Below are positions 26,923-44,147 of a stretch of DNA of 64,000 nt, piece by piece (the stretch's first letter is position 1; each line of letters opens with the position of its first letter). This DNA comes from an uncultured bacterium (GTDB taxonomy: Bacteria; Fidelibacterota; Marinisomatia; Marinisomatales; UBA1611): contig CALSPG010000001.1 in the NCBI GenBank assembly GCA_943788175.1, positions 320,001 to 384,000 on the forward strand. The letters run 5' to 3'. Position numbers and translations under genes: made by a program. Below the pieces are notes generated by a model that was given only the letters and a program-made list of their open reading frames with translations, was not told the origin of the DNA and made no database searches.

Positions 26923-27616
26923 AATAAATATTTTTGTCGTCTTTACTTACAAGTAAAACGCACTCACCTTTATATGTTTTTGTTTCAAGAATTTCTAAAA
27001 GGCTAGACAAGGTTCCTCTAATTATTTCCTCATAAATCTTTGTAATCTCTCTGCAAATAACTGCCGGTCTATCACCAAGAATTTCGAATAGCTGCTTAAC
27101 AGTTCTTTTAAGCCTATTACTGTTTTCATAAAAAATGATTGTCGCTTCTACATCTTTTAAATTCTCAATAATCTTTTTACGACCTTTTTTTGGCGGCAAG
27201 AAACCTTCAAATATAAACCTATCGGTAGGTAAACCTGAGCTGACTAAGGATGCTAAAACAGCAGAAGCACCTGGAATAGGCTCTATCTTACTACCAATTT
27301 CAATTGCTCTTCGAACTAGCTTGTAAGCAGGATCTGATATAGCTGGGGTACCTGCATCCGTTATAACCGCCACATCATAATTATCTTTTAAAACCTCCTC
27401 AATTCTCAATAATCGTTGGAATTTGTTGTGTTCATAATAACTTATCATTTTTGTTTTTATATTGTATCGAGATAAAAGAATTTTTGATCTTCTAGTGTCT
27501 TCAGCAGCTATAAGATTAACTGTTTTCAGTATATTAACAGCTCTGAATGTAATATCTTCAAGATTTCCTATCGGAGTGGATACCAGGTACAAAGTACCAA
27601 TATTGTCTTTAATCAA
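26915..27616 (-). CDS. rsmI: 16S rRNA C1402 2'-O-methyltransferase
   Basis: LYLVSTPIGNLEDIT, AEDTR, DAGTP.ISDP, REITK. Confidence 0.96.
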   Translation of the reverse strand: MIKDNIGTLYLVSTPIGNLEDITFRAVNILKTVNLIAAEDTRRSKILLSRYNIKTKMISYYEHNKFQRLLRIEEVLKDNYDVAVITDAGTPAISDPAYKLVRRAIEIGSKIEPIPGASAVLASLVSSGLPTDRFIFEGFLPPKKGRKKIIENLKDVEATIIFYENSNRLKRTVKQLFEILGDRPAVICREITKIYEEIIRGTLSSLLEILETKTYKGECVLLVSKDDKNIYFD

Positions 27617-28964
27617 TTTTTAATTTGTTTAAACATTTTTTTATCGCATCCATGCCAATATTTATATCATCTTTAGTAATATTTAAATGCGGTCTAAAAC
27701 GTATAGATTTTTGCCCTGAACCGAGAACAATAACTTTATTTTCCATTAGCATCGATGCTAGTTCATCCCGATGATTTGAGTCTGGAAGATCAAAAGCGCA
27801 AAATAAACCTTTCCCCCTGGCATTGGACACGAGATCTGAATAATCTGCTTGAATATTTTTCAATTGATCTAGCAGATAATTACCATTTTGTTTTGCATTA
27901 TTCACGAGGTTTTCTTGCTCCATAATTTCTAAATATATTGTAAACCTAACCATATCAACTAAATTCCCTCCCCAAGTGGAATTAATACGACTAGACTCTT
28001 GAAACACATTGTTTTCAACCTCGTTAATTCTATTACCAGCAAATATGCCACAGCACTGGGTTTTCTTGCCAAAGCTTATAATATCTGGTTCCATTGGCAT
28101 GCACCTAGTTTTAGAGCCACAATCACAGACTACTTTACATAAGTGTTGGTGAGCCCACATCTCACCAGTAATTCCAGCACCGGTTTGGACCTCATCAAAA
28201 ATCAATAGCATATCATTTTCTAAGCATAACTGTTTTAATTCTATCAAAAATTCGGGTCTAAAATGATTATCACCGCCTTCACCCTGGATAGGCTCAATAA
28301 TAATACAAGCTATATCATGTGGGTTTTTTAAGATAGCATCTTTAATTTGATTTAAAGAAACAGTTTCTCTCGCTATTACATCAGCTATATTTTCCTCGTT
28401 TAAAGGAAAATTGATATTAGGCGTTGATACGCGAGGCCAATTAAATTTTGGAAAATACATCACTTTTCTTGGATCTGGAGAGTCTGTCAAAGACATCGTG
28501 TATCCAGAACGACCGTGAAAACACTTCTCAAAATGCAATACCTGAGAACCAATTTCACCATGACCTTTTTCAATATTTTTTCTAACTTTCCAATCAAATG
28601 CAGCTTTTAATGCATTTTCTACTGCTAATGCGCCACCTGAGACATAAAATGAATGCGGCAAATAATCTGGTTGCGCTACTCTCCCCATAGTATCTACAAA
28701 TTCTGCCATTGCGATAGAATAGATATCCGAATTAGTAGGTTTATTTATCGCACTCGCAAGAAGCCTGTTTTTATTCTCCAAAACATAAGGATGATTGTAT
28801 CCAACAGATAGTGATGCAAACATAGAAAAAAGATCTAAGTACTTATCACCACTAGTACCATCAACTAACCAGCTACCATGGCTTTTTTCTAAATCAATAA
28901 CTGGAGACATTCCGTCAGCGAGCATATGATTACCTATTACTTTATGAACATCAGAATATTTCAT
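27609..28964 (-). CDS. lat: L-lysine 6-transaminase
   Basis: NKPTNSD, GALAVENALKAAFDWK, FHGRSGY, EPIQGEGGD, FGKKTQ, RINSTWGG. Confidence 0.93.
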   Translation of the reverse strand: MKYSDVHKVIGNHMLADGMSPVIDLEKSHGSWLVDGTSGDKYLDLFSMFASLSVGYNHPYVLENKNRLLASAINKPTNSDIYSIAMAEFVDTMGRVAQPDYLPHSFYVSGGALAVENALKAAFDWKVRKNIEKGHGEIGSQVLHFEKCFHGRSGYTMSLTDSPDPRKVMYFPKFNWPRVSTPNINFPLNEENIADVIARETVSLNQIKDAILKNPHDIACIIIEPIQGEGGDNHFRPEFLIELKQLCLENDMLLIFDEVQTGAGITGEMWAHQHLCKVVCDCGSKTRCMPMEPDIISFGKKTQCCGIFAGNRINEVENNVFQESSRINSTWGGNLVDMVRFTIYLEIMEQENLVNNAKQNGNYLLDQLKNIQADYSDLVSNARGKGLFCAFDLPDSNHRDELASMLMENKVIVLGSGQKSIRFRPHLNITKDDINIGMDAIKKCLNKLKID

Positions 28965-28965
28965 A

Positions 28966-30492
28966 TTAATCTCCTAAATTAAACTCAATACCTTGAGCAA
29001 GGGGTAAATCAGAACCCCAATTAATTGTATTCGTTTGTCGGCGCATATACTGCTTCCAAGAATCAGAACCAGATTCACGACCGCCACCAGTTTCTTTTTC
29101 ACCTCCAAAAGCACCACCAATCTCAGCACCAGAAGTACCAATATTTATATTCGCAATACCACAGTCACTACCTACGGCAGATAGAAAAATTTCTGCATTT
29201 TTAATGTTTAATGTAAACATTGAAGAAGATAACCCTTGAGGCACATCGTTATGCATTGTTATCGCATCCGCTAGGTCATTGTATTTCATAATATAAAGGA
29301 TTGGAGTGAAGGTTTCTTTTTGAACAATACTCCATTCATTATTTGCTTCAATAATTACAGGTTCAACGAATGAACCTTCTTCTGAAATTCGATTTTCGCC
29401 ACATAAAACTTTTCCTCCCATTGATACTGCTTCTTCTATTGCTGCAAAATGATTTGAAACGGCTTTTTCATTTACTACAGGCCCCATTAAAGTGTCTTTT
29501 TTTAAGGGATCTCCAATTTTTACCTGCTTATAAGCAGACATAACTTTATCAATAAGATTATCATAAATATTTTCATGGACAATAACCCTTCGTGTACTCG
29601 TACACCTTTGACCTGCAGTACCAACAGCACCAAATACGATTGCAGGAACAACCATATTCATATCAGCTGATTCATCAACAATAATACAATTATTACCCCC
29701 TAATTCGAGTATTGTCTTTCCGAATCTAGATGAGACTACTTCGCCCACATGTTTTCCGACCTTTGTTGATCCCGTGAACGAAACTAAAGGAACTGTTTTA
29801 TTATTTATCAGGTTTTCGCCAACCGTAGAACCATTTCCAATTACCAAACTGAAGATATCAGGAACATCATTAACCTTTAAAACTTCATTACAAATATTTT
29901 GAACCGCAATTGCACAAAGAGGAGTCTCCTCAGATGGCTTCCAAATGGTTGTATTTCCACAAATAGCGGATAAGAAAGCATTCCAACTCCAAACCGCTAC
30001 TGGAAAGTTAAACGCGCTAATAACACCCACCGGTCCAATTGGATGCCATTGCTCGTACATTCTATGTTGCGGCCTTTCAGAATGCATTGTCTTACCATAA
30101 AGCATTCTTGATTGCCCTACAGCAAAGTCTGCAATATCTATCATTTCCTGAACTTCACCATCACCCTCTTGCTTTATCTTACCCATTTCAAGTGAAACAA
30201 GACTGCCTAACGGGTCTTTATAATCTCTTAAAGCTCCGGCCATCTCTCGAACAAGCTGACCACGAAGTGGCGCAGGCACTTTTCGCCATTCTTTGTAAGC
30301 ATCCTTAGACCTTTTTATAATTTCATTACAGTCATCTATGGTTGATTCATAGACAGAAGCTATAATTTCCCCAGTAGACGGATTTATAGAAGATATTTTT
30401 TTTGAACTACTACCTTTTATCCATCCATTAGGGCCAGAACATGCTCCATAATTATCTTCTTTTATATTAAGTTTTTCTAATATCGTATTCAT
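28966..30492 (-). CDS. ALDH7/Pcd-type aminoadipate-semialdehyde (P6C) dehydrogenase
   Basis: [52 protein letters not shown]. Confidence 0.92.
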
Positions 30493-30507
30493 TTTATCTT
30501 ACCCTAA

Positions 30508-31839
30508 TTATAGTGATGCAACTACATCTTTGACTGCGTTCGAGAGCAATTCTATTTGTTCACTTTCTATTGTTAATGCAGGAGCTAACCTTACAGTAGT
30601 TCTATGTGTTTCTTTTGCGTAAACACCTCTATCCATTAACCCAACGGAAACTTTGTGGCCATCTAAATTTTTCTCATCAAACATTTCAAAGGCTGTTAGT
30701 AGGCCTTTACCCCTAACCTCTTTTATCTTATCAGGATAGTGGTTCTGGATATCTCTAAGGTTATTCATGAGTTGTGCTCCTCTGACTTCTGCTTTTTCAG
30801 CTAAACTAGCATCAACCATGACTTTAATAGCATACGTACCAACAACAGAAGCAAGCGGATACCCACCAAACGTTGAACCTTCAGATCCAGGCGTCAACAA
30901 GCCAAGAACGTCATCTCTTCCAGCTACAAAAGAGACAGGAAGGATTCCTCCACCTGCAGCTTTACCACAGCCCATTATATCTGGAACGACACCGAATAAT
31001 TGGTGTGCGAAATTTCTACCGGTTCTACCAAAACCAGTTTGAACTTCATCCATCGATAATAAAATATTATGCTTTTTACATAGTTCAGAAACTTTAATAA
31101 AATAATCATCATCAGGTACAATTACGCCGGCTTCACCTTGAATTGGTTCAACCATATATGCGGCAATATACTCCCCTTTTTCTTCGAAGAGTCTTTGCAA
31201 TGCAACAACATCATTATAAGGTACTAATTCTATACCCGGGACAAATGGGCCAAAGTTTTCTTTAGAATCAGGATCATCTGAAAATGAAACTGCCGCTAGA
31301 GATCTACCATGGAAATTTCCAGTCGCGCCAACTATAATCGCTTCATTTGCTGGTATACCTTTTACTTCATAACCCCATCTTCTACAAATTTTAAATGAAA
31401 GTTCCCATGATTCTACTCCTGCAACTTTTGGAATAACTCTATCCATACCCGTAATCGCAGTTGCAGATAGTAAAAATGCGCTCATATATTTATGTCTAAT
31501 TGATCTCGGAACAGTCGGAAGTTTTTCTTCTTCTAAGTGTTTAATGACTGCTTTCACAATTGTCTGATTTAACTGGCCTTGATTTACCGCAGAATAACAA
31601 CATAGGCCATCAAGTATCTCTTCTTCTATATATTTAGTAATATCATCAGGATGTGGTTTTCTAGCAATTAAAGTAGAAGAATCCTTCACTTTAGAGATTA
31701 CAACATTTTCAAGAGGAGAATAATTCTGCCCGCCTTTTTCTTTTTCAATTTTTTCATGCTCATGTGGCGTTAAGTCACCGATTTTTATGCCATCGACACT
31801 CAAGTCGTCGCCATAGCCATTTATTAATACCTCTGCCAT
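30508..31839 (-). CDS. rocD: Ornithine aminotransferase-like class III aminotransferase
   Basis: YSAVNQG, RRWGY..KG, NFHGR, FGPFVPG, EPIQGEAG, DEVQTG, GK..GGG, STFGG.PLA. Confidence 0.75.
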   Translation of the reverse strand: MAEVLINGYGDDLSVDGIKIGDLTPHEHEKIEKEKGGQNYSPLENVVISKVKDSSTLIARKPHPDDITKYIEEEILDGLCCYSAVNQGQLNQTIVKAVIKHLEEEKLPTVPRSIRHKYMSAFLLSATAITGMDRVIPKVAGVESWELSFKICRRWGYEVKGIPANEAIIVGATGNFHGRSLAAVSFSDDPDSKENFGPFVPGIELVPYNDVVALQRLFEEKGEYIAAYMVEPIQGEAGVIVPDDDYFIKVSELCKKHNILLSMDEVQTGFGRTGRNFAHQLFGVVPDIMGCGKAAGGGILPVSFVAGRDDVLGLLTPGSEGSTFGGYPLASVVGTYAIKVMVDASLAEKAEVRGAQLMNNLRDIQNHYPDKIKEVRGKGLLTAFEMFDEKNLDGHKVSVGLMDRGVYAKETHRTTVRLAPALTIESEQIELLSNAVKDVVASL

Positions 31840-31888
31840 AAAAACTCTCTATTTTTTGTGATTTATAAAAAAAGAATCAATTAAAGGT

Positions 31889-32758
31889 TTATTCCTCTTC
31901 AATCGAGCTGTCGAGATTATCAACAGGTACTACATTACCACTATTCTCTTGACGGTAAGCCGCATAACCAAGGGTACCGACGATAATGAATAAAACCCAA
32001 AATGTAGCATAACTATATTCACTGCCAGAAAATTTTATGAGATCGGTAAACCTGCCAATAAGTAATGAAATGCGACCCATAACGGCAAAACCGAACGAGG
32101 CGCCAAAACTTATCATTAAGAAATAAATACCTATTTTTGAAGCTTTTCCTAGTAGGCCCTTATGCTCCTTTGAAAAATAAAAATATAGAAGTCCGCATAT
32201 CGTACCGATAAAAATAATTATATTATTAAATATTGATGGAGATGAGAGGCTAAAAACGGGCAAACTAAAGTCAAGAAGATTAACAGCCGTGCCTTTAATT
32301 TGACCAAGAACATTTGAATTCAGATAACCATATGCTTTCAGCCCAGCAGCCATTCCAACAACATATGCGATACCCCAGCGAGCCATCCAACTAAAACTAG
32401 GAATAAGACTAAGCAACATCATCACACCCAATGCTAAGGGTATTAAATAAGTTAAATGTTGGTCGTGCCCTTTATCAATACCACCTGCTGGAAAAATTGA
32501 ACTGGAGAAAAAACTAAGTATATTATAGATAGTATACATAATAGTATCTGGGTCATAATGCTTGGCTGGAAAAAGACGACCAAATAAATTTGGCTGCAGT
32601 TGAGTCCAAAATCCAAGAGACAAAAGATATCCAGCTGAAACACCTACAAAAAGATGTTCAGATGCCTTATAGAATGGGTTATCTTTATAAAGGTAAGAAA
32701 AGATGCCAATCGTTAAAAACGTGGCAACCCAAGCACCTAATATAGTCGAAAATTCCAT
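31889..32758 (-). CDS. Multi-pass membrane protein of GlmL-associated cluster
   Basis: About 7 hydrophobic segments; FSYLYKDNPFYKASEHLFVG motif. Confidence 0.75.
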   Translation of the reverse strand: MEFSTILGAWVATFLTIGIFSYLYKDNPFYKASEHLFVGVSAGYLLSLGFWTQLQPNLFGRLFPAKHYDPDTIMYTIYNILSFFSSSIFPAGGIDKGHDQHLTYLIPLALGVMMLLSLIPSFSWMARWGIAYVVGMAAGLKAYGYLNSNVLGQIKGTAVNLLDFSLPVFSLSSPSIFNNIIIFIGTICGLLYFYFSKEHKGLLGKASKIGIYFLMISFGASFGFAVMGRISLLIGRFTDLIKFSGSEYSYATFWVLFIIVGTLGYAAYRQENSGNVVPVDNLDSSIEEE

Positions 32759-32767
32759 TTTTATTCC

Positions 32768-33622
32768 TTAATACTTTCTTGATCTTTTTCGTTCTATAAA
32801 AAAAGAAATATTACCAAGAACAATAAATAGCACGATTACTAAGTGAGCTACTGATTGCGCATCCATCCCGCTTGTGGCAGAACCTTTTTGATTTATTAAT
32901 GATTCATATTCAGCGGCGCCAGGCATTCCAGCAAGCACACCAATCATTTGACCCGATTGGACATAAGGCATAACCTCATTTACCTGGATAGATGTTACTC
33001 CAGAACTCATTGGTACTCCAGTAGGGTCTGCGGCATACTGCACCCACTCGATTGTACCTGGATAGCCAGCTGAAGCACTAAACAAAAAGTCGAAATCTTT
33101 AAAATTAGTTATTCCATCCATCATAGGAATGTCGTCGACCTTTGTTTGCTTTGCGTCAACAGAAAATAGTTTTCTAATATTACTAACAATCCCTTTAACC
33201 ACTGCCTCCCCGCCAGGTCTATAACCAAGTAAAACATAATCTTCACCGTATGTTTTATTAAACTCGCCTTCTGCAACCTGTTTTAAAGCATCTTGAGCCA
33301 TAAACTGTCCATCAGGCCATAGACAGGTAACATAAACCTTTTGATCATTTCTAAATAAATGTCTCATGATACTAATAGTCATAGGATGATTTTCAGGCTT
33401 TGTACTGGGACTATATTCAATAGAAAGCAAAACATTTGACCCCTTAGGAAGCGCTTCTATAGCATCGTAGACACTTTTTGAAGTATCAGTTGCTCGAATT
33501 GGAAGTCCAATTGGCACAAGCAGAGGGATGATTACAACGACAGCAATAACAATAAATATCCACCTTCTATCGACACTGCCAATTTTTAAAAAAATATCTT
33601 CTATTTTATTCAATTTACTCAC
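32768..33622 (-). CDS. Membrane-anchored alpha/beta protein of GlmL-associated cluster
   Basis: N- and C-terminal TM helices; YGEDYV.LGY.PG, GAAEYE, MDAQSVAH. Confidence 0.75.
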   Translation of the reverse strand: MSKLNKIEDIFLKIGSVDRRWIFIVIAVVVIIPLLVPIGLPIRATDTSKSVYDAIEALPKGSNVLLSIEYSPSTKPENHPMTISIMRHLFRNDQKVYVTCLWPDGQFMAQDALKQVAEGEFNKTYGEDYVLLGYRPGGEAVVKGIVSNIRKLFSVDAKQTKVDDIPMMDGITNFKDFDFLFSASAGYPGTIEWVQYAADPTGVPMSSGVTSIQVNEVMPYVQSGQMIGVLAGMPGAAEYESLINQKGSATSGMDAQSVAHLVIVLFIVLGNISFFIERKRSRKY

Positions 33623-34439
33623 CTATATAAGATCTTTCGATTCCTAGAATATAGCGAATTGAGGTCGCAAAAATACCCAAGCCAATTCCGATCATTATTG
33701 CACGAGCACCAGCAACATTAGGATAAAAATAAATCCATTCTTGTATTGACGGAAGATAAAATATGCCAGGTTGATCTATTGGCCACCCCGTAATAACACC
33801 TCCTATAGTGACAAATGAAATACCCACAGCAACAAAAACGAAAGTGATCTTCATATCTTGTTTCAAACTATTTACATAAACACCAAGACAAAGAACAATT
33901 AAATACATGATAAACCAGGAAGATATAACACCGCCGATAGGAACTCTACCGACCATGATAATAATACCAGAGACTAAAAGCAGCGTCGCTTCAAAATTTC
34001 TTATTCTAAAAGCACGATACGAAGCTGAAGCAACAAAAAACGCCAACAAAGAAAACATTGTTGCTGACATTGGAGAAAAGACATAATCAAACATCCACTT
34101 GAAAAGAGTTCCATCTGAGGTAACGTGAGCACCCCATTGAGCGACAGAATCATCTACTCCCTTTACAAAAAAACCAGCAATAATAGCAAAAACAAAACCA
34201 AAAACAGCAATAACACTATATTGCCAACCTGGTTTTTGATACAGAACTTTCTGCAATTGTAATTTAATTAAATTTAAAGCTCCAAGGATAATCGCAAAAC
34301 TAGCTAGAACATCAAACCACTGAGTTGCATCATCCCCAACAAATTCTTTTACATTTGGTTGATCGATAAACCAACCAAAAAGGGTAATTGAGCCGATTAG
34401 CGTAACGATGAATATAGGTATCTGTCTTTTCCAGAACAT
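33615..34439 (-). CDS. Multi-pass membrane protein of GlmL-associated cluster
   Basis: About 8 TM segments; MFSLLAFFVASASYRAFR. Confidence 0.75.
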   Translation of the reverse strand: MFWKRQIPIFIVTLIGSITLFGWFIDQPNVKEFVGDDATQWFDVLASFAIILGALNLIKLQLQKVLYQKPGWQYSVIAVFGFVFAIIAGFFVKGVDDSVAQWGAHVTSDGTLFKWMFDYVFSPMSATMFSLLAFFVASASYRAFRIRNFEATLLLVSGIIIMVGRVPIGGVISSWFIMYLIVLCLGVYVNSLKQDMKITFVFVAVGISFVTIGGVITGWPIDQPGIFYLPSIQEWIYFYPNVAGARAIMIGIGLGIFATSIRYILGIERSYIGE

Positions 34440-34445
34440 AAACGG

Positions 34446-35309
34446 CTACCTTATTGTTAAATACTCTGTGATATTAAAACCAATTCCAGTTGATTCAAAA
34501 ATCGTCATCATAATCGCTGAAAGAACGATGACAGATATAACAACTAGCTTAATCATATCTTGACCCTTAACACCACCGATAAGCTCAGGCTTTTGACTTA
34601 GATATGCACTGGCCGCAAAAAACTCTTCACCTATTAATGTATAGTCACAGGCAGTAACAAAAAAAGGTATTTGTGCTTGTGAAGCGGTACCTGCTATTTG
34701 AATGGCACCAATAGAATTTCCAGTTTCAGCTAAAATAAGAGACTCGGCATAAAACTTACCCATATACATACAGGCTGCAGGCTTTTCACGCAGCATAATA
34801 CCATTAACGCCGGCAGCATAAGCAAATTGATCATCTGTCAAGTAGTGAACCATATCTTCATTAAACATATCTGGTCTACCCTCAAGCATGTAAGCTTCTC
34901 TGCAAGATTCTCTAGCAGCCTTCATCACGATAGATCTAGAAACAGGAACATTGAGACTAGTTTCATATCGAGCCGTCATCTTTGCGACATGACCAAGAAC
35001 AACCACACCAGCAACTGTTTCAACTTGATCCATGTCCTGAATTCCAGGAACGTAAAGAATCGGTCTACCCATTTCAGTAGAACGACCCACAGCTTCTTCA
35101 ACAGCTTTTAGGGCTGGAATTGGCCTTAGATAAAATTCTTCTCCGCGTTCAGCTGCTCTAATGAAATAAAGAAGAGTCGAACTAAGAGAAACGATAGCGA
35201 AAAGCATTACAAACCTTTCCGTAACGAAATAAGGATGTCCTAGTAGCCAATATGCTAGAAAAACAACTGTAATCGAAGCGATTACAAACCAAAATTTTCT
35301 ATCCTTCAA
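34446..35309 (-). CDS. DUF6754-like membrane protein
   Basis: IPAL.A.EEAVGR.TEMGRP, FAYAAG, AESLILAE, LIGEE.FAASAYLS. Confidence 0.75.
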   Translation of the reverse strand: MKDRKFWFVIASITVVFLAYWLLGHPYFVTERFVMLFAIVSLSSTLLYFIRAAERGEEFYLRPIPALKAVEEAVGRSTEMGRPILYVPGIQDMDQVETVAGVVVLGHVAKMTARYETSLNVPVSRSIVMKAARESCREAYMLEGRPDMFNEDMVHYLTDDQFAYAAGVNGIMLREKPAACMYMGKFYAESLILAETGNSIGAIQIAGTASQAQIPFFVTACDYTLIGEEFFAASAYLSQKPELIGGVKGQDMIKLVVISVIVLSAIMMTIFESTGIGFNITEYLTIR

Positions 35310-35332
35310 ATATTATCCTTAATTCCATCTTA

Positions 35333-35629
35333 CTAATCTAACATCTCAAGACGCTCAATTTCATCTAATAAAATTGATAGAGAATCTTTTTTATTTAACA
35401 GTTCTGCAGCTCTGTAATAACCATCTGTCTGAACAAAACCATTAATTATTGGTCCCATAAAAACCATTAAATGACTTCCAAGAGATGACAATGGCCGTAC
35501 CATTTCTAAAAAAAATATTGATGGCGTAACGAAACCTGAACTATGAATTTTTTTTGCTAATCTATGAATGAAATCAATATCTTGTTGAGATATTTTACCG
35601 TCAAGAATTTCTTTAGTCAAAGACATCAA
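35333..35629 (-). CDS. Small amphipathic protein of GlmL-associated cluster
   Basis: LAKKI...G..TPSIFFLEM.RPLS.LGS; 1-bp gap from the upstream gene. Confidence 0.7.
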   Translation of the reverse strand: MMSLTKEILDGKISQQDIDFIHRLAKKIHSSGFVTPSIFFLEMVRPLSSLGSHLMVFMGPIINGFVQTDGYYRAAELLNKKDSLSILLDEIERLEMLD

Positions 35630-35630
35630 A

Positions 35631-36758
35631 CTAATCAGTCTCTACAACTTCTAAATTAGAACGTGGAATTTCAATCATCTTACCTTCAATATTAATAATT
35701 GCAACTCTAACCATTGTTTCAGACTCCATTTTCCTTAATTCAGACGGAAGCTCTTTTACAGACCCAATTTTACCAAAATTTGGAGATCGGATAACTCTAA
35801 CTAAGCTACCTTCAGTCATACCAGACATTTTTTTTGAATTCTCATCATTATCTTTTTGGCTGCTTGCATCAGTAGGAATAATTATCTCGGGCCTTATTAC
35901 ACCAGCGCGTATTTGAGTAGCACCATTAATTGAGGCTAATCTGTCACTATTTTCTTTCAATAAATCAAATGTTTGCGCTCCCATTTGGATTTTGCCATAA
36001 CCTTCTGTAACTATTAAAGAAGTAACTAAATCCTCAGAGCCAGTTATAGCCACACCAAGCGTGTATCCTAAAATTTCTTCTAAGTCATAGTAATTAAAAC
36101 CGCCAACAACAACACCAGCAACTTTGCATTCTAAGGCTTTTTTGTAGGCTTCTAAACTAATAAAACTACCGCCTACAATTATCATTCCCTCATGTTCAGG
36201 AAGAATCATGTCAGCACTAATTTCAGAACTTCTATCTTCTGAAAGCATCTTGATTTTTCCTCGGCTTTCGCCTCCTATACCAAAGATACCCTGTACAAAA
36301 GAACCGTAGCTTTTTATTACCACACCTTCTTCAGTTATTACCTCATGAACAATACCTCGTATGTAAGCATCAACTTCAACGGGAATTGGAGCTTCTCTAA
36401 TCACAATTTGCCCTGTAATATTGGAAACTGACTCGACTGTGCCATCAACGGGACTATTTACACTGGACTTAAAATATCCAAAGATGCCATTAGTTTGTGC
36501 AATCAAATCATTTTTACTTACCTTAGAACCTTCTTTTGCAATCATAACAGTTTCAACATCGGAAGCATCAATATTCAACTGATTGGCGACGTTAACCATT
36601 TGCACATTTCCTGGCAAATCTGTTTTTGCAATAATATCTTCAGGAGCTACAGTATCTCCAACCGATGTATCAACAGACCCCTTTAGCGGAAGCCTACGCT
36701 CTTTTAAAATTTTTGTTTTCTTTAATACCTTTAAACCTGGTGTATACGAATGAGCCAT
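35631..36758 (-). CDS. Barrel-sandwich-hybrid plus C-terminal KOW-like protein
   Basis: V..GD.V / SPVDGTVESV hybrid motifs; QGIFGIGGE; C-terminal G..VRVIRSP.FGKIG.V. Confidence 0.7.
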   Translation of the reverse strand: MAHSYTPGLKVLKKTKILKERRLPLKGSVDTSVGDTVAPEDIIAKTDLPGNVQMVNVANQLNIDASDVETVMIAKEGSKVSKNDLIAQTNGIFGYFKSSVNSPVDGTVESVSNITGQIVIREAPIPVEVDAYIRGIVHEVITEEGVVIKSYGSFVQGIFGIGGESRGKIKMLSEDRSSEISADMILPEHEGMIIVGGSFISLEAYKKALECKVAGVVVGGFNYYDLEEILGYTLGVAITGSEDLVTSLIVTEGYGKIQMGAQTFDLLKENSDRLASINGATQIRAGVIRPEIIIPTDASSQKDNDENSKKMSGMTEGSLVRVIRSPNFGKIGSVKELPSELRKMESETMVRVAIINIEGKMIEIPRSNLEVVETD

Positions 36759-36759
36759 A

Positions 36760-38577
36760 TTACTTACCTAATTCAGGATATTCATCAACAGCATCAGACC
36801 ATTTTTTAAGATCTGAAATACGTTTTGAAGAAGACTTTTCTATCTGCAGAGGTCTACCACGACCATCAATGATAATTCCAACCTGCCCACCAAATATTTT
36901 AGTATTTATTTGTTCTCCAGTGCCAGCGCCTACATCAACACTTTTTCCTGGAGTTAAAGTAGCTTTGACTTCTTCATAGCCCACTTTAATTCTTATTAAA
37001 TCACCGAAACCAATATCAATGTTTTTCTTATCGCCATTTTTAAATTCTAAATTCACGTTAAGAATTTTTTCACTACCGTTTACCTTGCCAACAGGTGCGA
37101 TACAAGTACCAAGGCGAATTAAACAGTCTTTTTCAAAAACCTCTAGCGCAGCTATCCTAGCCTGCTCAGCAATTTCTTTATTTTCAATATTTGCCATTAC
37201 GCCTAATTGAGGCATCATAAAAATTGAGTCTACAGCTAGTGAAGTAACTCCTTCAGGCAAAAAACTATCAATTAACATTTTTGCTGACTGCTCTCTCCTA
37301 GGTGCATGAGATAAAACGCCACCAGATCCAACAATGAGATCAAGCTCCATCATATCTACAAGAGATTCACCAGAGTCGGATTGCTCAAAAGCATCTGAAA
37401 TAGTTCTTTCTTTTTGAACACCTTTGAGATTTACCGCAAAAGCTTTGTGTTGTATAAACGATAATCTTAATGCTTCCCTGGCTATCGCTTGCTCAATTAC
37501 AAGCTCTTCCAAACTCTGTGGAACTGTTGTTGGGCGAATCATTTTATTACCAATTCTATTGGTTAATTCTTTTTCATCGATATCAAAAGGCACCCAGCGA
37601 AGAACATTAGGCAGCGATGCTTCTGCAAGTACGTTACAAATTGAATAACTCATACCAAGATTTGCGCTGACAGTTCTATTAAACTGATTTTGAAAAACAG
37701 AAAAAATATCGGTAGTCGCCCCTCCAATATCAACGCCAACAACAGAAATATTTTCTTTTTTAGCGACCATTTCAATTAGCGCACCTACTGCACCAGGAGT
37801 CGGCATAATCGGAGCATCTGTCCAACTCATAAGCTTCTTGTATCCAGGAGCTTGTTGCATGACATGTTCCATAAACAAATCATGTATTTTATCTCTAGAT
37901 GGCTTGAGATTTTCTTGCTCTAAAACAGGTCTAATGTTTTCTGTGACATCAAGATCTGTAAGTTTACCAAGTGTCTTTTTTATGTCAGAGGTTGCTTTTT
38001 TATTTCCAGCGTAAATAACGGGTAGCTTATAATTTTGGCCTAATCTTGGTTGTGGATTCGCAGCAGCTAATATTTCAGCTAGTTCAACCACGTGCTTTGT
38101 GGTGCCACCATCAATCCCGCCAGAAAGCAAAATCATATCGGGTCTTAATTGTCTTATTCTAGTAATCTTTTCATGTGGTTTTCTGCCGTCATTAGCGGCA
38201 AGCACATCCATCACTATAGAACCGGCACCAAGGGCCGCCCGCTCAGCGCTTTCTCCAGTCATTGATTTAACAACACCTGCTACCATCATTTGAAGTCCTC
38301 CACCAGCAGAACTAGTAGATATGTAGATATCTACGCCATCATCTTTTTTCTGAGGCGTAATAATATTTTCACCGTCAAGTATTTTTCGACCTGAGAGCTC
38401 TTCAATCTCCATTGTAGCATTTAGAACGCCTCGAGTCACATCTTCAAAAGGAGCCTCAACAGTTGTAGGCGCCTCACCTCTAAAGGTTAAGCGATATTCA
38501 CCATCAACAAATTCAATTAAAATTGCTTTTGTCGTTGTACTTCCGCAATCGGTAGCCAGTATAGAACGAAGTTTCAA
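36760..38577 (-). CDS. Glutamate mutase L (GlmL/MutL)-like ASKHA/actin-fold ATPase
   Basis: DCGSTTTK (phosphate 1), SSAGGGL, LLSGGIDGG, MPTP, VDIGGATTD (phosphate 2), GSGGVLSH. Confidence 0.85.
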   Translation of the reverse strand: MKLRSILATDCGSTTTKAILIEFVDGEYRLTFRGEAPTTVEAPFEDVTRGVLNATMEIEELSGRKILDGENIITPQKKDDGVDIYISTSSAGGGLQMMVAGVVKSMTGESAERAALGAGSIVMDVLAANDGRKPHEKITRIRQLRPDMILLSGGIDGGTTKHVVELAEILAAANPQPRLGQNYKLPVIYAGNKKATSDIKKTLGKLTDLDVTENIRPVLEQENLKPSRDKIHDLFMEHVMQQAPGYKKLMSWTDAPIMPTPGAVGALIEMVAKKENISVVGVDIGGATTDIFSVFQNQFNRTVSANLGMSYSICNVLAEASLPNVLRWVPFDIDEKELTNRIGNKMIRPTTVPQSLEELVIEQAIAREALRLSFIQHKAFAVNLKGVQKERTISDAFEQSDSGESLVDMMELDLIVGSGGVLSHAPRREQSAKMLIDSFLPEGVTSLAVDSIFMMPQLGVMANIENKEIAEQARIAALEVFEKDCLIRLGTCIAPVGKVNGSEKILNVNLEFKNGDKKNIDIGFGDLIRIKVGYEEVKATLTPGKSVDVGAGTGEQINTKIFGGQVGIIIDGRGRPLQIEKSSSKRISDLKKWSDAVDEYPELGK

Positions 38578-38612
38578 ATTAAAATTCTCTAAGTATAAAC
38601 GTTAATTAATGT

Positions 38613-39431
38613 TTATTGATTAAAAACCAGGAGGTAAATATAAATCAAAGGCGATGAAAAAAGTAAGGAATCAAAGCGGTCCAGTATTCCTCCATGCCCT
38701 CTTAAGATATCTCCGGAATCTTTGACTCCAACATCGCGCTTAAGCAGCGACTCCCCAAAATCTCCTAGCTGGCCAAAAACACCAGAGATCAAACCAAAGA
38801 CAATAGCATCAATTAAAGAGTATGTAGGTCCTAAAAAATCAAGCTTATATGCAATCAGAAACGTTAATATAGAAAAGATAAAACCAGAAATCGACCCTAC
38901 CCAACTTTTTTTGGGACTTATTTTGGGAAGAATTTTTTTCTCACCAAATTTTGTTCCAAAAAAGAAAGCGGCTGTATCACATAGCCAGACAGACACAAAC
39001 AATAAAAGCGTAACATTGGAATCAAAAATATGATCTAATTGCCGCAGGTGGATCAATGTTCCAAGCAAGGTTGGTACAAAAATAATCCCCAAAACAGTGT
39101 TTGCAATGTTTTGCAAGGGTTCCTTTTTATTGTTTATTATTTCAATGATAAAAAGACTAATTACAGTCATGCATGCTAGGCCGAGTACTGTAATTTGATG
39201 ATGCGCATAAACGCCAGAGTAAGCTAGTCCGATAAAAACAGTTATAATAAACCCAAATATACGATTTGGATAGCTCCCTTTTATTTCACACATTTTGAAA
39301 AACTCATCAAGGCCTAGCAACATAATCAACGTAGTAACGATGGCAAAAATTGGGTTCCCTACATAAAAACAGCCAACACCCAAGGGGACACCCAAGATTA
39401 AAATTAGCTTTCTACCTTTAAGTTCTTTCAT
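38613..39431 (-). CDS. cdsA: Phosphatidate cytidylyltransferase
   Basis: W.CDT.AFF.G, ISPKKSW.G, GD..ES.LKRD.GVKDSG...GHGG.LDRFDS. Confidence 0.95.
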   Translation of the reverse strand: MKELKGRKLILILGVPLGVGCFYVGNPIFAIVTTLIMLLGLDEFFKMCEIKGSYPNRIFGFIITVFIGLAYSGVYAHHQITVLGLACMTVISLFIIEIINNKKEPLQNIANTVLGIIFVPTLLGTLIHLRQLDHIFDSNVTLLLFVSVWLCDTAAFFFGTKFGEKKILPKISPKKSWVGSISGFIFSILTFLIAYKLDFLGPTYSLIDAIVFGLISGVFGQLGDFGESLLKRDVGVKDSGDILRGHGGILDRFDSLLFSSPLIYIYLLVFNQ

Positions 39432-39451
39432 ATCCTAATTTACTATAATCC

Positions 39452-40360
39452 TCAGGTTAAAATTAGATTATAAGTTCTACACCTTCCTTTGATTAAACTT
39501 ACAGATACAGGCGACGTCCCAATAATCTCCCCATCAATATTTAATTCTCCTTTATCACCTGGATCGATAGAAAACGATTTACATTGAACATATTCGCATG
39601 CATCGTGATCTACATGCGAGCCGTCAAATAGTTTGGGAAATACTGAAAATAACGTGAGACTAGATGCCTTTTTCACAATGATTAGATCTATTAAGCCATC
39701 ATCAATCATTGCATGAGGCGCCATCTTCATATCCTTGCCAACATATTTAGTATTACATGCGATAATAAAAGCGAAATCACCTTCTCTTTCAACTCCATCA
39801 ATCGTTATTTTTGCAACTCTTCGCTTATTTTTAATAATTTCAAAAAATGAAGCAATGTTATAGCGCTGACCACCGAACATGCACGTAGCTTTTCCGCAAA
39901 CACGGAAATATCAGTTGCCATTCCCCAGCCAATGAGGTTTAGTGAAAAGAAATCTTTTTGACCACAGACTTGCTTTCATGACGTCAATTTTTCTAGAGCT
40001 GTTCTCTCGCAATTATTTTCACAGCAGACTCTTGTTTAGTCGCTCCAACAGTCTTCATAAAAGAATTACCCGTACCATTCGGCATTACTGATATAGGGAC
40101 TCTATCCTCTGCCGACCTTGACAACATTCCGTTCAAAACCTCAAACAATGTACCGTCCCCGCCCATGGCGCAAACGGAATCAAAATTAGTTAAATTTTCA
40201 TTTTTCACTATATCTACGGCGTGACCCATTATACTCAGTTTTAATTAAAGTACTTTCTACGCTCATATCTTTTAAAGCACTACATATTAACAGTACTTAT
40301 AGCATTATGAAAATTAATAGTCCCGCTTTTTGGATTAGCAATTAAAAGGACCTTGGTCAT
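39452..40360 (-). pseudogene. Diacylglycerol kinase family lipid kinase, multiply frameshifted (probably sequencing error)
   Basis: Starts [13 protein letters not shown] at 40360. GGDGT..E..NG, P.GTGN, DDG..D and NIDGE motifs lie in different frames, implying at least 5 small indels. Confidence 0.8.
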
Positions 40361-40882
40361 TTTGGGCGATCCCTATGATGCATATAAACACCGTCGCCCC
40401 ATTCAATAACATCAACTTGTACTTTTGTTTTGCCTTCCTTAATAAAACCTAATTTTTTAGCAGCTCCGTAAGAGCAGTCGAGCATTCTTCCTTGGATATA
40501 AGGGCCCCCTATCGTTAATTCTTAAAATCAAAGATTTGCCATTTGCTAAATTTGTAACCCTTGCAACCGTATTCAAGGGGATTGTTTTATGGGCAGCAGT
40601 TAAGCCGTACATATCGTAAATCTCCCCATTTGCAGTAAGCTTCCCATGAAAATCCTCCGCATAAAATGAACTGATACCAACCATCTTTTTTTTATGTTTG
40701 ACATTGGTATTTACTGTTTTGGGATCAATAAAAACTGCCTTGCTTTTAGATTTGTTCTTTTTGAGCGGTGCCCGATATTTTTTTTTAACCTTAGAAGTCG
40801 CCGTTCTTCCGTATCTGGGCGCGCTTGAGCAGGCTGCGAAGACTAAAAAAACCAGAACATAAATGAGCCTTCTATGAATCAT
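40357..40882 (-). CDS. rlpA: RlpA-family septal lytic transglycosylase lipoprotein (one +1 frameshift)
   Basis: Lipobox AAC, TANGE, AAHKT.P, RINDRGP. Removing one G from the G-run near 40505 restores [18 protein letters not shown]...RPK*, whose stop overlaps the DAGK ATG. Confidence 0.85.
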
Positions 40883-41327
40883 TTATTTGCCTCAATGCTT
40901 CGTATAATACTATACCTACGCTCGTTGCCAAATTTAGACTCCGTATATTTCTATTTTTCATTGGTATCGTACAAGCATTCTCAGGATACTTGTTTAGAAT
41001 TTTTTCTGAAATACCAGCAGTCTCACTGCCAAAAATAATAATGTCATTAGATGCATACTTTCTTTTTGTATAAATATTTTTTGATTTTGTCGTCATTAAA
41101 TGAAAATTATTTTTAAAAGTATTTTCACAATACTGATTTAAATCTGGAAAACATTCCCAATTTATGTAATTCCAATAGTCTAACCCTGCTCTTTTTAAAT
41201 ATTTATCACTCATATCAAACCCAAGTTTTCCGACTAAATCTAATTTTACATCGTTTGCGCCACACAAGCGCGCAATGTTTCCGGTATTCGGCGGTATCTG
41301 GGGCTCAAATAATGAAATTGTTAACAT
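40872..41327 (-). CDS. trmL: tRNA (cytidine34-2'-O)-methyltransferase
   Basis: [32 protein letters not shown]. Confidence 0.95.
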
Positions 41328-41329
41328 GT

Positions 41330-42404
41330 TTATTTCACTCGACTAAGCGCATAATTAATCTTCGGTATGCAATAGGGGTCCATAATTAAAGCTGTGGCTA
41401 GACCGTATAGTGATGCTCCTGCATCTCTCACTGCATTCAAATGATGTATTGTCGATATACCACCTGTTGCCATAATCTTTAAATTCATATCGTTAAATAA
41501 ATTGACCAGCTCCAAAGTTCTCGGGAAAATTGCAACACCGCTTAATCCCCCGCCACCGCGAGGAAGGCTACCATTTTTAAAGCCTAAATATTTGATTGTT
41601 TTAAATTGCGTATTGCCGGCATTTATTATCATTCTTTCTTTCGACTTAATGACCTCCCCGATTTTTTTGAGGTGATCATTGTTCCAATCAGGAGATATTT
41701 TTACCGAAACCACAGAATCATTTTTCGCTCTAATATGATTAATCAAAGTTTCTAATTCGTCAATATTCTCACCAATAGTGCTGCCAGTATCTGTATTTGG
41801 ACAACTAATGTTCAATTCAAAAAAATATTCACTAGATTTTAATTTATTCGATAATTTTTCCAACACATTAAATGTTTGTATATAATCATCAAGGTTCTCA
41901 CCACCAATTGAGAGACCAATCGGCTTACTATGGTTCCACAAAGAATTGTCAAAAATTTCCTTAGAAAATTTTTCAACACCTTCCCCAGGAAGACCTAAAG
42001 CATTAACTAAACAAGCTTGTCTTTCAAGCCTAACTTGCTGTAATCGCGGTCTCGAATTTCCTAGTCTCTCTTCTTTCATAATAGTTTTTAGTATTGCGCC
42101 ACCTAATCCAAGCCTTAGCCAAATACCAATCAAATTTTTATCAGATTTAAATGAAGAGGCTATAATAGGCGACTTAAATTTCAGATCAAATACTTCAACA
42201 TCTAAATTGTCTGGTATTGCAAATTGATAAGCTAGACCACCAATAAACTTATCGATTTTAACAAGGTTCCTATCTCCAAACTCAACTATAGATTCAAGAT
42301 CTTGTTTCTTATTAAAGAGTAAATTGATAAAGAGAAGTAATTATTCTTGCTAAAAATCGAGTAGATCTATAAAAAAAAGAAAAAAGGTGTTTTCTTATTA
42401 GCAC
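41330..42404 (-). CDS. pyrD: Dihydroorotate dehydrogenase-like flavoprotein (N-terminal frameshift)
   Basis: LKT, NALGLP, ELNISCPN, VKISPD, GNT, GGLSG, TGGI. The frame extends upstream through LDVEVFDLKFKSPIIAS; the probable GTG start at 42404 is in another frame (shift near 42310-42340). Confidence 0.75.
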
Positions 42405-42410
42405 AACTAA

Positions 42411-44147
42411 TTAATTAACTATGCCTGTACTATCATTATTCGAGCTAGATATCATATTTTCAATAATTTTCGCTCTATACTTTGCAAAGTTATTTTGCTC
42501 TGAGGAGGGGTGCCGTTTACCAAGCCAGTTATAATATTTAAATGCGCTGTCGAGTTCTGCATATTTATAATCATATTGATAACCTAAAAAATAGGCAGCT
42601 GAAGCAGATAGTTCGCTTAAAGAATCTGCAAAAATAACCTCTTTGAAGACACCTAGCGATGAAACTGGGTTCCTAGACCATAATTTTTCTGCTTTAAAAA
42701 ATAATTTTTCTATTGGTCGAGAAAGAGAGTTTTTATTCGCTTTTTTAAATAAGTATGAAGTATAGTCAGAACTAGCATGGTTAGTCTGTAACAAGGTCTT
42801 GTATTTATCAACCATCAATGAATCTTCATTGTTTTCATAAATCATAGCTAACGTAAAAATTGATTTTGGAACAAAAGGAGAAGAAGAATTCAATTCAATA
42901 ATTTTTTCAAAATACACAATCCCTGAATCAATTCTATCAAAACTGAAAGCTTCAATATCGCCTAATAAATAAAGCAACTCTTCAATTGATTTTGAGGGGT
43001 TAGGTTTTTCATGGCTGATTGAATCTGCTACTAACGAATCATTAATGGATGAATCTGGTACAGCTTGGTATTTATTTAGCTGACTTATTGCATCTGTATA
43101 CTTTTCAATCGCATTAATCTTGGTGTCGCAAAATGGTCCAAACTCTGTTCTTCCAAATTCTTTTTTTACCATAGAGAACTTCTCTTTAGCTATTATAGGA
43201 TTCCATTTTTCAGCCAAGTAAATCTGGCCCGTTATATAATATGCTTCTGCAGAAGTCTGCGTTCTTGGATAATCATTAATGATTGATTCTAAACGAACAA
43301 TCGCATTGTCTGTGTCTTCTTGACTAAGGTATAATTTGACAAGTTCTAACTCAAGGTCACCCTTAATATTTTTAAATTTATCATCAACCAGCATGGATTT
43401 GATTTTTCTTTCTACCAATCTATGATCACCTAAAAGTCTAGATATTTTTAAAATTTGTATATGTGCATTTTCAATTTTTTCTTTTGTTAATGAATTTTTA
43501 ATTACTTCTTTATAAGCACTCTCTGCAACATCATATTTTTCATTATTAAAGGCAATATCCGCAAGTTGATTGTAAACAATCCCTTTTTTTGCTCTGTCTT
43601 TGATAACCTTGGCACCTTCTTCTAAATGGAATAAAAAATTACTATTTTGATCCTCAGTTAGATAAATATCCGCTAAGGATAGATGGCTTTGGGCAATGAT
43701 CTTATTTTTATTGGAGGATTTGATAATATTTTGAAGTTCTTCAATCGCTGTTTGCGTTTTTCCTTTTTTCCATTTACAAACGGCAGACCAGTATTTAGCT
43801 TCAGCTACTTGTTCTACGTTACCCTGGTTATAGATTATCTTAAGATTTGAAATTGCATTATCATATTCAGATCTGTAAAACTGAGCTTTAGCCATTAAAA
43901 GAATGGCGTCATTTACATATTTTGATTCAGGGAAATCTGACAGAACAATCTTACACTTCTGAATTGTTTTCCCATAATTATCCATTGCTCTAAGCGGAAC
44001 GGCTTTATCTGATTTCTCGAGGCGAATACGATCGGCTTCATTGAAATATTTTTCTGCATTATAGAAAGTATTGAAATAAGCGCAAGAGGATAGCAATAAA
44101 CTAACCGCTATAGGAATTAAGCGAGGTATTGTCCAAATTCTGTGCAT
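42411..44147 (-). CDS. TPR-repeat lipoprotein (SprE/PorW-like N-terminus)
   Basis: Lipobox LSSC-AYFNTFYNA; multiple TPR-like helices. Confidence 0.75.
   Translation of the reverse strand: MHRIWTIPRLIPIAVSLLLSSCAYFNTFYNAEKYFNEADRIRLEKSDKAVPLRAMDNYGKTIQKCKIVLSDFPESKYVNDAILLMAKAQFYRSEYDNAISNLKIIYNQGNVEQVAEAKYWSAVCKWKKGKTQTAIEELQNIIKSSNKNKIIAQSHLSLADIYLTEDQNSNFLFHLEEGAKVIKDRAKKGIVYNQLADIAFNNEKYDVAESAYKEVIKNSLTKEKIENAHIQILKISRLLGDHRLVERKIKSMLVDDKFKNIKGDLELELVKLYLSQEDTDNAIVRLESIINDYPRTQTSAEAYYITGQIYLAEKWNPIIAKEKFSMVKKEFGRTEFGPFCDTKINAIEKYTDAISQLNKYQAVPDSSINDSLVADSISHEKPNPSKSIEELLYLLGDIEAFSFDRIDSGIVYFEKIIELNSSSPFVPKSIFTLAMIYENNEDSLMVDKYKTLLQTNHASSDYTSYLFKKANKNSLSRPIEKLFFKAEKLWSRNPVSSLGVFKEVIFADSLSELSASAAYFLGYQYDYKYAELDSAFKYYNWLGKRHPSSEQNNFAKYRAKIIENMISSSNNDSTGIVN

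Follow-up and report, generated by a model that had tools for sequence, protein, structure and literature searches.

What do the seven genes encode that run together on the minus strand of the window, the 64,000-nucleotide (nt) stretch analysed here from the genome of an uncultured bacterium of the phylum Fidelibacterota? The genes, labelled A to G in Table 1, specify a putative ATPase of the acetate and sugar kinase/Hsc70/actin (ASKHA) fold, its partner protein, a small protein and four membrane proteins. The first-pass annotation of this DNA had described seven co-oriented and tightly spaced genes at this place, and the list of open reading frames (ORFs) agrees with it, the spacings from A to G being 1, 1, 23, 6, −8 and 9 nt. 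Hydropathy finds membrane segments in each of the four proteins that had been called membrane proteins (three in D, about seven in E, two in F and at least four in G) and none in A, B or C. A Pfam scan assigned no ATP-binding cassette (ABC) family ABC_tran and no permease family to any of the seven proteins, the PADLOC models of anti-phage defence matched none of them (0 families), and the 15 pairs among B to G compared with hhalign gave probabilities of 9.2% at most and so no sign of paralogy between the subunits. Because the set recurs at 17 of 20 loci of the phylum and also in other phyla, it is more than a chance arrangement.

Table 1. Genes A to G and nearby features (positions are those of the window).
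Feature	Positions	Strand	Length	Description
A	36760-38577	minus	605 aa	PF13941 ASKHA ATPase (MutL/GlmL-like) with C-terminal extension of about 135 aa carrying an invariant CX6C
B	35631-36758	minus	375 aa	Constant partner of A; barrel-sandwich hybrid, swivelling beta/beta/alpha and KOW/SH3-like domains
C	35333-35629	minus	98 aa	Conserved hydrophobic hairpin and C-terminal helix
D	34446-35309	minus	287 aa	DUF6754; two N-terminal membrane helices, Rossmann-like domain, C-terminal membrane helix
E	33615-34439	minus	274 aa	Polytopic membrane protein, about seven hydrophobic segments
F	32768-33622	minus	284 aa	N- and C-terminal membrane helices around an alpha/beta domain of about 215 aa
G	31889-32758	minus	289 aa	Polytopic membrane protein
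Downstream trio	27609-31839	minus		Ornithine--oxo-acid transaminase, L-piperideine-6-carboxylate dehydrogenase and L-lysine 6-transaminase, in this order after G
Ornithine aminotransferase (first of the trio)	30508-31839	minus		Begins 49 nt after G
YegS/diacylglycerol-kinase-like lipid kinase	39452-40372	minus		Upstream of the phosphatidate cytidylyltransferase gene; split over at least three reading frames

We sampled 201 genomes across the phylum and compared the lists of those in which A, B and D are present. A was found in 130 genomes, B in 133 and D in 128; all three occur together in 125 and are jointly missing from 67, which leaves nine mixed cases (G002, G092, G104, G114, G120, G133, G139, G142 and G193). 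Eight of these nine genomes are 65-87% complete, and the other, G193, is 93% complete with a contig end some 800 nt away from B. No genome of the 201 had A without B or D. The 53 genomes of six families (f19, f20, f23, f26, f28 and f30) have none of the three, and in genus g6, whose genomes measure about 1 Mb, D, B and A were each found in 12 of 13. At the 17 phylum loci mentioned above, A to G stand in one block, in the same or a shifted order; the remaining three loci, all from genus g48, hold C-D-E-F-G only, and in G017, a complete genome of this genus, A and B are located about 1.07 Mb from D. The expectation that the seven genes co-occur as a conserved unit was thus borne out by the presence lists and the blocks alike.

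Outside the phylum, the family of D, DUF6754, has 2,111 representatives of 50% clusters (E ≤ 0.001), and a pattern scan with one genome per species confirmed at least 623 loci with the D-E-F-G block in several phyla. The records of the carriers are labelled Zixibacteria, WOR-3, Eisenbacteria, Fermentibacteria/Aegiribacteria, Ignavibacteria, Riflebacteria, Stahlbacteria and Planctomycetota (Phycisphaerales, Isosphaeraceae and Singulisphaera), together with single metagenome-assembled genomes labelled Bacillota and Deltaproteobacteria. We kept 79 loci from other genomes and annotated them with profiles built from the phylum. E, F or G stands beside D in 76 of them, A or B lies within 10 kb in 44, and the gene orders include ABCDEFG (19 loci), CABDEFG (7), DEFGCAB (3) and a divergent arrangement of BA and DEFG (2), among others. 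At 20 of the 79 loci D-E-F-G is found alone, and in all five genomes with such a locus that were searched for it, B is encoded elsewhere (E 1e-160 or better). From these loci and the distant copies of B we deduce that the set consists of two modules, (C)A-B and D-E-F-G, which are often but not always linked. In five genomes the copies of D and B stand in ratios of 4:1, 4:1, 5:1, 6:1 and 1:1, and some of the multiple copies of D belong to tandem D-E-F-G repeats. The orphan ATPase and the conserved unit of the earlier interpretation stand, and what it overlooked is the division into two modules and the many-to-one copy ratio. Three tandem D-E-F-G repeats were observed in Zixibacteria, Ignavibacteria-type and WOR-3 genomes (L079, L090, L091; G201 at about 2.063-2.071 Mb), where a single A-B pair lies beside the repeats or apart from them.

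The two proteins of the first module are also found as one. In six genomes of the phylum A and B form single open frames of 993-1028 aa, and PF13941, the family of A, is present in all but one of 64 longer relatives of B (63). Among these 64 relatives, 46 are fusions of 974-1022 aa that are 44-48% identical to B, one of them labelled Planctomycetota, and 14 are distant, with 24-31% identity to B. The distant ones make up a second family of A-B fusions (P0431-P0444; 920-1053 aa), with one member labelled Cloacimonadales and single members that bear helix-turn-helix, Biotin_lipoyl or zinc-ribbon domains.

The ATPase itself matches PF13941 (MutL) over residues 6-470 with E 3.1e-123 and 412.3 bits (gathering cut-off 27). 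Its translation holds TDCGSTTTK, VDIGGATTD and VGSGGVLSHAP, which we take to be the phosphate 1, phosphate 2 and adenosine motifs of ASKHA proteins; the three motifs had been reported as intact, and we read them likewise. A is 58-81% identical to its orthologues at other loci, across phyla, and C11, C485 and C492 are invariant in the alignment; all 47 A ORFs contain DCGST, and 44 of them contain CX6C. No chain in the PDB matched A by sequence or profile, except for an insignificant profile match to a segment of the fumarate reductase Fe-S subunit (E 0.55). Close relatives of A are labelled Candidatus Marinimicrobia/Neomarinimicrobiota (Fidelibacterota) and stem from marine samples, and genes of this type are at present annotated as "glutamate mutase L" or "methylaspartate mutase". 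GlmL is described as a chaperone that reactivates glutamate mutase (PMC4682846). A shares with GlmL and Or-4 the Pfam family and the ASKHA fold; it differs in scoring below the NCBIfam cut-offs (219.1 bits against 475 for the GlmL equivalog NF040745, 198.9 against 600 for Or-4 NF040744 and 151.6 against 204.05 for TIGR01319), in its extra conserved C-terminal domain with CX6C, in having no adjacent mutase and in tracking B and D-E-F-G.

Is A, then, independent of B12 mutases, as had been supposed? A scan of the 16 ORFs at 27609-44147 turned up neither a B12-binding nor a mutase gene, in line with the first-pass annotation. The genome of the window, which is 92% complete, has one PF13941 gene, and a true GlmE was not found in it, the sole match (2e-6) being to a methylmalonyl-CoA-mutase gene (7.6e-209). 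GlmE occurs in one of the 201 phylum genomes (G163), which has no PF13941, B or D, and B12-binding domains occur in 200 of the 201, including the 67 without A, B and D. Since these domains are present with or without the system, they do not explain the distribution of A. A is not a GlmL equivalog or glutamate-mutase helper here, and the supposed independence is upheld. The B12 proteins encoded elsewhere in the genome of the window include a 134-aa B12-binding protein and a protein of about 1185 aa. Two large subunits of the methylmalonyl-CoA-mutase type are encoded on contigs C6 and C7. The 134-aa protein stands alone (L005 6168-6572, contig C5), between a D-Tyr-tRNA deacylase and a TPR protein and far from both mutase-type subunits.

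B had been described as a 375-aa barrel-sandwich/KOW protein, and both domains appear in its predicted model (mean predicted local distance difference test score, pLDDT, 84.8); the model has a third, central part, a swivelling domain, that this description missed. In the VIA structure search, in which Z below 8 is common background, the barrel-sandwich lobe (residues 49-123) resembles NqrA (4u9o, Z 7.6) and RnfC (8ahx, Z 7.5). The swivelling domain (about residues 152-296) is closest to the phosphohistidine swivel of enzyme I of the phosphotransferase system (PTS; 2wqd, Z 9.1, root-mean-square deviation 2.6 over 101 aligned residues), followed by rifampin phosphotransferase (5hv1, Z 8.6), the C-terminal domain of pyruvate kinase (2e28, Z 8.2), and aconitase X and RraA (Z 8.0). 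The KOW/SH3-like end (residues 313-374) gives Z 8-8.9, with KOW 5ohq at 8.9, and resembles NdhS/PsaE at Z 7.5-8.1. By sequence, the one Pfam match of B is to RnfC_N (E 0.0095, 16.4 bits), below the cut-off of 25.6; the PDB returned no match by sequence or profile, and the Atlas returned only clusters of B's own kind, unnamed or weakly named. In 25 sequences from several phyla the mean column identity of B is 53%; an N-terminal YTPGL is invariant, and the conserved motifs include QGIFGIGGE and NGATQIRAGVIRPE.

RnfC and NqrA belong, as peripheral subunits, to the membrane complexes Rnf and Na+-NQR. B differs from both in its sub-threshold RnfC_N match and in having no flavin or Fe-S domain, and D to G match no Rnf or Nqr membrane subunit. 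From the mobile domain of phosphoenolpyruvate (PEP)-utilising enzymes it differs in having no invariant His and no PEP-utilizers match in Pfam, and its nucleotide-binding partner is an ASKHA protein rather than an ATP-grasp or PEP-binding domain. The likeness to the PTS extends to organisation, in that one general cytoplasmic unit is present for several membrane units.

C has no family match in Pfam or NCBIfam, and P36, E42, G51 and P60 are invariant in its hydrophobic hairpin. It is present at 46 of 99 loci, adjoining A or D. At 15 loci of several lineages it is preceded by a further gene, H, whose product of about 140 aa contains two membrane helices and, at its C-terminus, the motif SRLDxxRG (L006 14575-15009, L068 5420-6145, L069 5766-6239 and 12 further loci); tblastn found no match for H in the genome of the window.

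Among the membrane proteins, D alone has a family, PF20539 (DUF6754; E 2.8e-115, 384.3 bits, cut-off 27). In its predicted model (pLDDT 77.9) a Rossmann-like domain lies between two N-terminal helices and a C-terminal one. Thirty diverse members share 37 invariant columns, and the cytoplasmic domain is 43-59% identical among representatives of 50% clusters. Foldseek found no match for D in the PDB at E ≤ 0.001, nor did sequence or profile searches. Residues 170-201 are poorly modelled and yet nearly invariant, as might be expected of a surface that takes on its fold only upon complex formation. Sixteen of 120 listed longer relatives of D have an extra N-terminal Pfam domain before DUF6754: fn3 in eight, a PQQ-type beta-propeller in six, a parvulin peptidyl-prolyl isomerase (PPIase) in one and a PMT_2/DUF2142 glycosyltransferase-like domain in one. 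In the other 104 of the 120, as in the D of the window, no ectodomain was recognised. Because the fused domains act outside the cytoplasm, the conserved domain of D should be cytoplasmic.

E adjoins D at 93 of 99 loci and G is present at 83. No Pfam family rises beyond noise for E in 27 members, of which three to eight weakly match ABC membrane families (best E 0.0074), and F and G (25-27 members each) have no Pfam family and only scattered weak matches. In F an invariant DRR precedes helix 1, a basic tail follows helix 2, and Q256, H260 and N271 are invariant within helix 2; the DRR and the basic C-terminal tail suggest that the intervening domain should face outward. The Atlas held no usable, named look-alike of this outer domain. 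In B and D to G, no cofactor motif is conserved beyond single residues.

How might these parts work together? We favour, with some reserve, the reading that A and B form a shared cytoplasmic ATPase module which serves four-subunit inner-membrane modules of the D-E-F-G type. It starts from what was observed, namely the gene content, the co-occurrence, the A-B fusion, the copy ratios, the domain folds and the presence in ocean RNA libraries; the physical docking, the use of ATP, the direction of the work and the substrate we infer. The cytoplasmic module would consist of the ATPase and its obligate partner, with C as a likely adaptor on the membrane side. In the inner-membrane module D would offer its cytoplasmic Rossmann-like domain and F a domain at the outer face, and in other species D also bears variable ectodomains. 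The two lobes of A may close and open upon ATP binding and hydrolysis, and B, by its swivelling domain and perhaps with C as an intermediary, might relay this movement to the cytoplasmic domain of D; less likely, B could carry a phosphoryl group. The membrane module would then exert its work at the cytoplasmic membrane or on a target beyond it. One A-B module might serve all D-E-F-G paralogues of a cell, comparable to the general energising components of energy-coupling factor (ECF), TonB and PTS systems. In view of the ectodomains fused to D we lean away from a small amino acid as the substrate and towards a macromolecule or a component of the envelope, which is a lean and not a result. Hsp70 motors operate at eukaryotic translocons, mtHsp70 at TIM23 and BiP at Sec61/Sec63. 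By analogy, an actin/Hsp70-fold ATPase would here likewise be coupled to a multi-subunit membrane complex; unlike those motors, the set has no J-domain or nucleotide-exchange partner, and its topology would be cytoplasmic.

Several points weigh against a shared ATPase module of this kind. The phylum genomes are related, so that the co-occurrence counts overstate independence, and the modules are unlinked at the 20 loci with D-E-F-G alone. The contact between the modules and the ATPase activity of A are both predictions. One of the 64 longer relatives of B (P0424) joins B to DUF6754; it covers only profile positions 2-128 of that family, with an fn3-like stretch between the parts, after B, and we rejected it as a genuine B-D fusion in favour of a probable gene-call read-through, given that half a DUF6754 and an ectodomain-like stretch follow B. 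The best VIA matches of the modelled cytoplasmic domain of D are universal-stress-protein-like (Z 6.8) and do not rise above background. No His or Cys of B that could carry a phosphoryl group is invariant in the 25 sequences, and no His stands even among the nearly invariant columns. The fold predictions cover B and D. The RNA-library contigs described below are a hint of expression; they may contain DNA and are no proof of one transcript. A complex prediction of B against C and residues 28-287 of D (score 0.00, mark 0.32) says nothing either way.

The genes around the set differ by lineage. A gene for phosphatidate cytidylyltransferase (CdsA) lies 35 nt upstream of A in the window and upstream of the set at 16 of the 20 phylum loci, and the CdsA cluster (33 loci) is confined to Marinimicrobia-type loci. 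The trio downstream of G scores above the NCBIfam cut-offs (TIGR01885, 382 bits against 378; NF050084, 774 against 730; TIGR03251, 639 against 521). Elsewhere (Pfam scan, 90 of 143 flanking ORFs, loci L055 onward, mostly non-Marinimicrobia) the neighbours are acyl-CoA dehydrogenases with DUF4388 in WOR-3/Stahlbacteria, pyruvate phosphate dikinase in Zixibacteria, an M28 peptidase with an alpha/beta hydrolase and DUF364, PlsX/FabH at three planctomycete loci, a TonB-dependent receptor with ExbB and a glycine-cleavage P protein at three loci, Opp ATPases with a Wzz-like protein at Riflebacteria-type loci, and restriction-modification genes. All-against-all clustering of 1,567 ORFs from the 99 loci showed that only A to G and H recur across lineages. 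There is no single functional theme among these neighbours. The DUF4388 (PATAN-type) proteins follow G at four WOR-3/Stahlbacteria loci (L056, L058, L059 and L075), and a response-regulator-DUF4388-DnaJ-TPR protein is encoded near the block at L081 (3108-5492).

Of the sampled words, 37-76% are present in four marine metatranscriptome runs, which come from two studies, and the contigs of these runs cover 26-29 of 30 bins of positions 27000-41000 and bridge the junctions of the ornithine aminotransferase gene with G, of G with F, of F with E and of D with C. The depth was 0-1.4 at 39142-40542 in all four runs, an uncovered stretch that was not used as evidence. Between 27000 and 42500, scans for promoters (63 against 54 ± 6.7 in shuffled sequences) and terminators (11 against 9.5 ± 3.4) did not exceed the shuffles and therefore do not define the ends of a transcription unit.

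Could the set serve another purpose? It might be an envelope or secretion helper, in which an Hsp70-like ATPase and a membrane module act together on the outer side of the cytoplasmic membrane to export, insert, fold or modify proteins, glycans or lipids. Such a helper would resemble the Hsp70 motors at eukaryotic translocons, and it would suit the fusion of D to parvulin PPIase, BamB-like beta-propeller, fn3 and GT-C-like domains, the CdsA gene directly upstream here and at about ten of the 20 phylum loci, the PlsX gene directly downstream at three planctomycete loci, the Wzz-like gene beside B at three loci, the PMT_2 gene near L095 and the retention of the set in genomes of about 1 Mb. All this support is circumstantial, however; most listed longer relatives of D and the D of the window are without a recognised ectodomain, no subunit matches the Sec, YidC, Tat, Lol, Lpt or flippase families in Pfam, and we regard the idea as unlikely, if worth keeping in mind. 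The first-pass annotation had proposed instead a membrane complex such as a non-ABC, ATP-driven transporter or sensor, with amino acids or peptides as its substrate on account of the aminotransferase genes next to G. As an importer, it would supply the lysine and ornithine catabolism encoded next to it. Genes for L-lysine 6-transaminase and/or piperideine-6-carboxylate dehydrogenase do follow the set at eight of the 20 phylum loci, RNA-library contigs bridge G and the ornithine aminotransferase gene in three runs, and neighbours at other loci include M28 peptidases (three loci), Opp-type ABC ATPases (two), the glycine-cleavage P protein (three) and methionine gamma-lyase. Yet this adjacency is limited to part of one phylum and gives way elsewhere to the PlsX/FabH, TonB-dependent receptor and ExbB, DUF4388, dikinase and restriction-modification genes listed above, and the membrane block stands without a nearby ATPase at 20 of 79 loci. 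The set also includes no subunit like a solute-binding protein or known permease, and domains such as those fused to D typically make contact with macromolecules. The link to amino acids amounts to synteny within one lineage, which leaves the proposed substrate weakly founded, and an importer of this kind seems to us rather improbable.

Two further alternatives concern A and B. They could be a redox or regulatory unit rather than a motor, in which the CX6C of A, with C11, binds a metal or an Fe-S cluster and gates or reduces the membrane module. The invariant cysteines, the match of this segment to the fumarate reductase profile and the likeness of B to RnfC/NqrA and to NdhS/PsaE would all agree with that, but a match at E 0.55 lacks significance, a cluster held by one chain would need more than two or three cysteines, the folds involved are common, and B and D to G offer no further conserved cofactor motif; we consider it very improbable. 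Alternatively, A could be a true GlmL/MutL-type reactivase for a B12 mutase encoded elsewhere, with the membrane genes as unrelated neighbours. Membership in PF13941, the best NCBIfam matches to GlmL and Or-4, and the two mutase-type large subunits and separate B12-binding protein of its own genome speak for this, whereas the scores lie far below all cut-offs, the distributions of GlmE and of B12-binding domains differ from that of A as given above, and A tracks B and D, not mutases, and is even fused to B. To this alternative we give next to no credence.

The shared A-B module serving D-E-F-G modules, if its ATPase does drive the membrane module, would represent a new type of coupling between ATP and membrane work in bacteria. 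One may go further and suggest, tentatively and with more doubt than confidence, a new class of primary membrane energiser, in which an actin/Hsp70-fold ATPase and a swivel-domain transducer power four-subunit modules, one motor being common to up to six that have different outer domains; if true, this would be a counterpart of the ABC, P-type and rotary ATPases, spread over many phyla that have received little study. No characterised relative exists for six of the seven proteins, and the seventh, A, is annotated after a function that it very probably does not hold here, so that its mutase-type annotation can mislead metabolic reconstructions. The housekeeping-level conservation, the retention in streamlined ocean genomes of about 1 Mb and the presence in at least 623 species genomes suggest an undiscovered core membrane function. 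We found no paper on DUF6754/PF20539, PF13941, TIGR01319 or the gene set in open-access PMC and bioRxiv.

A minor observation concerns the YegS-like lipid kinase gene upstream of the CdsA gene. Its pieces are an N-terminal part with KVLLIANPKSG (40280-40372), a part with GGDGT (39993-40244) and YegS_C (39452-39910), and the split may reflect an assembly error or a strain-level pseudogene. A single RNA-library contig differs in this region by 1-nt deletions at 39875, 39878 and 40500.

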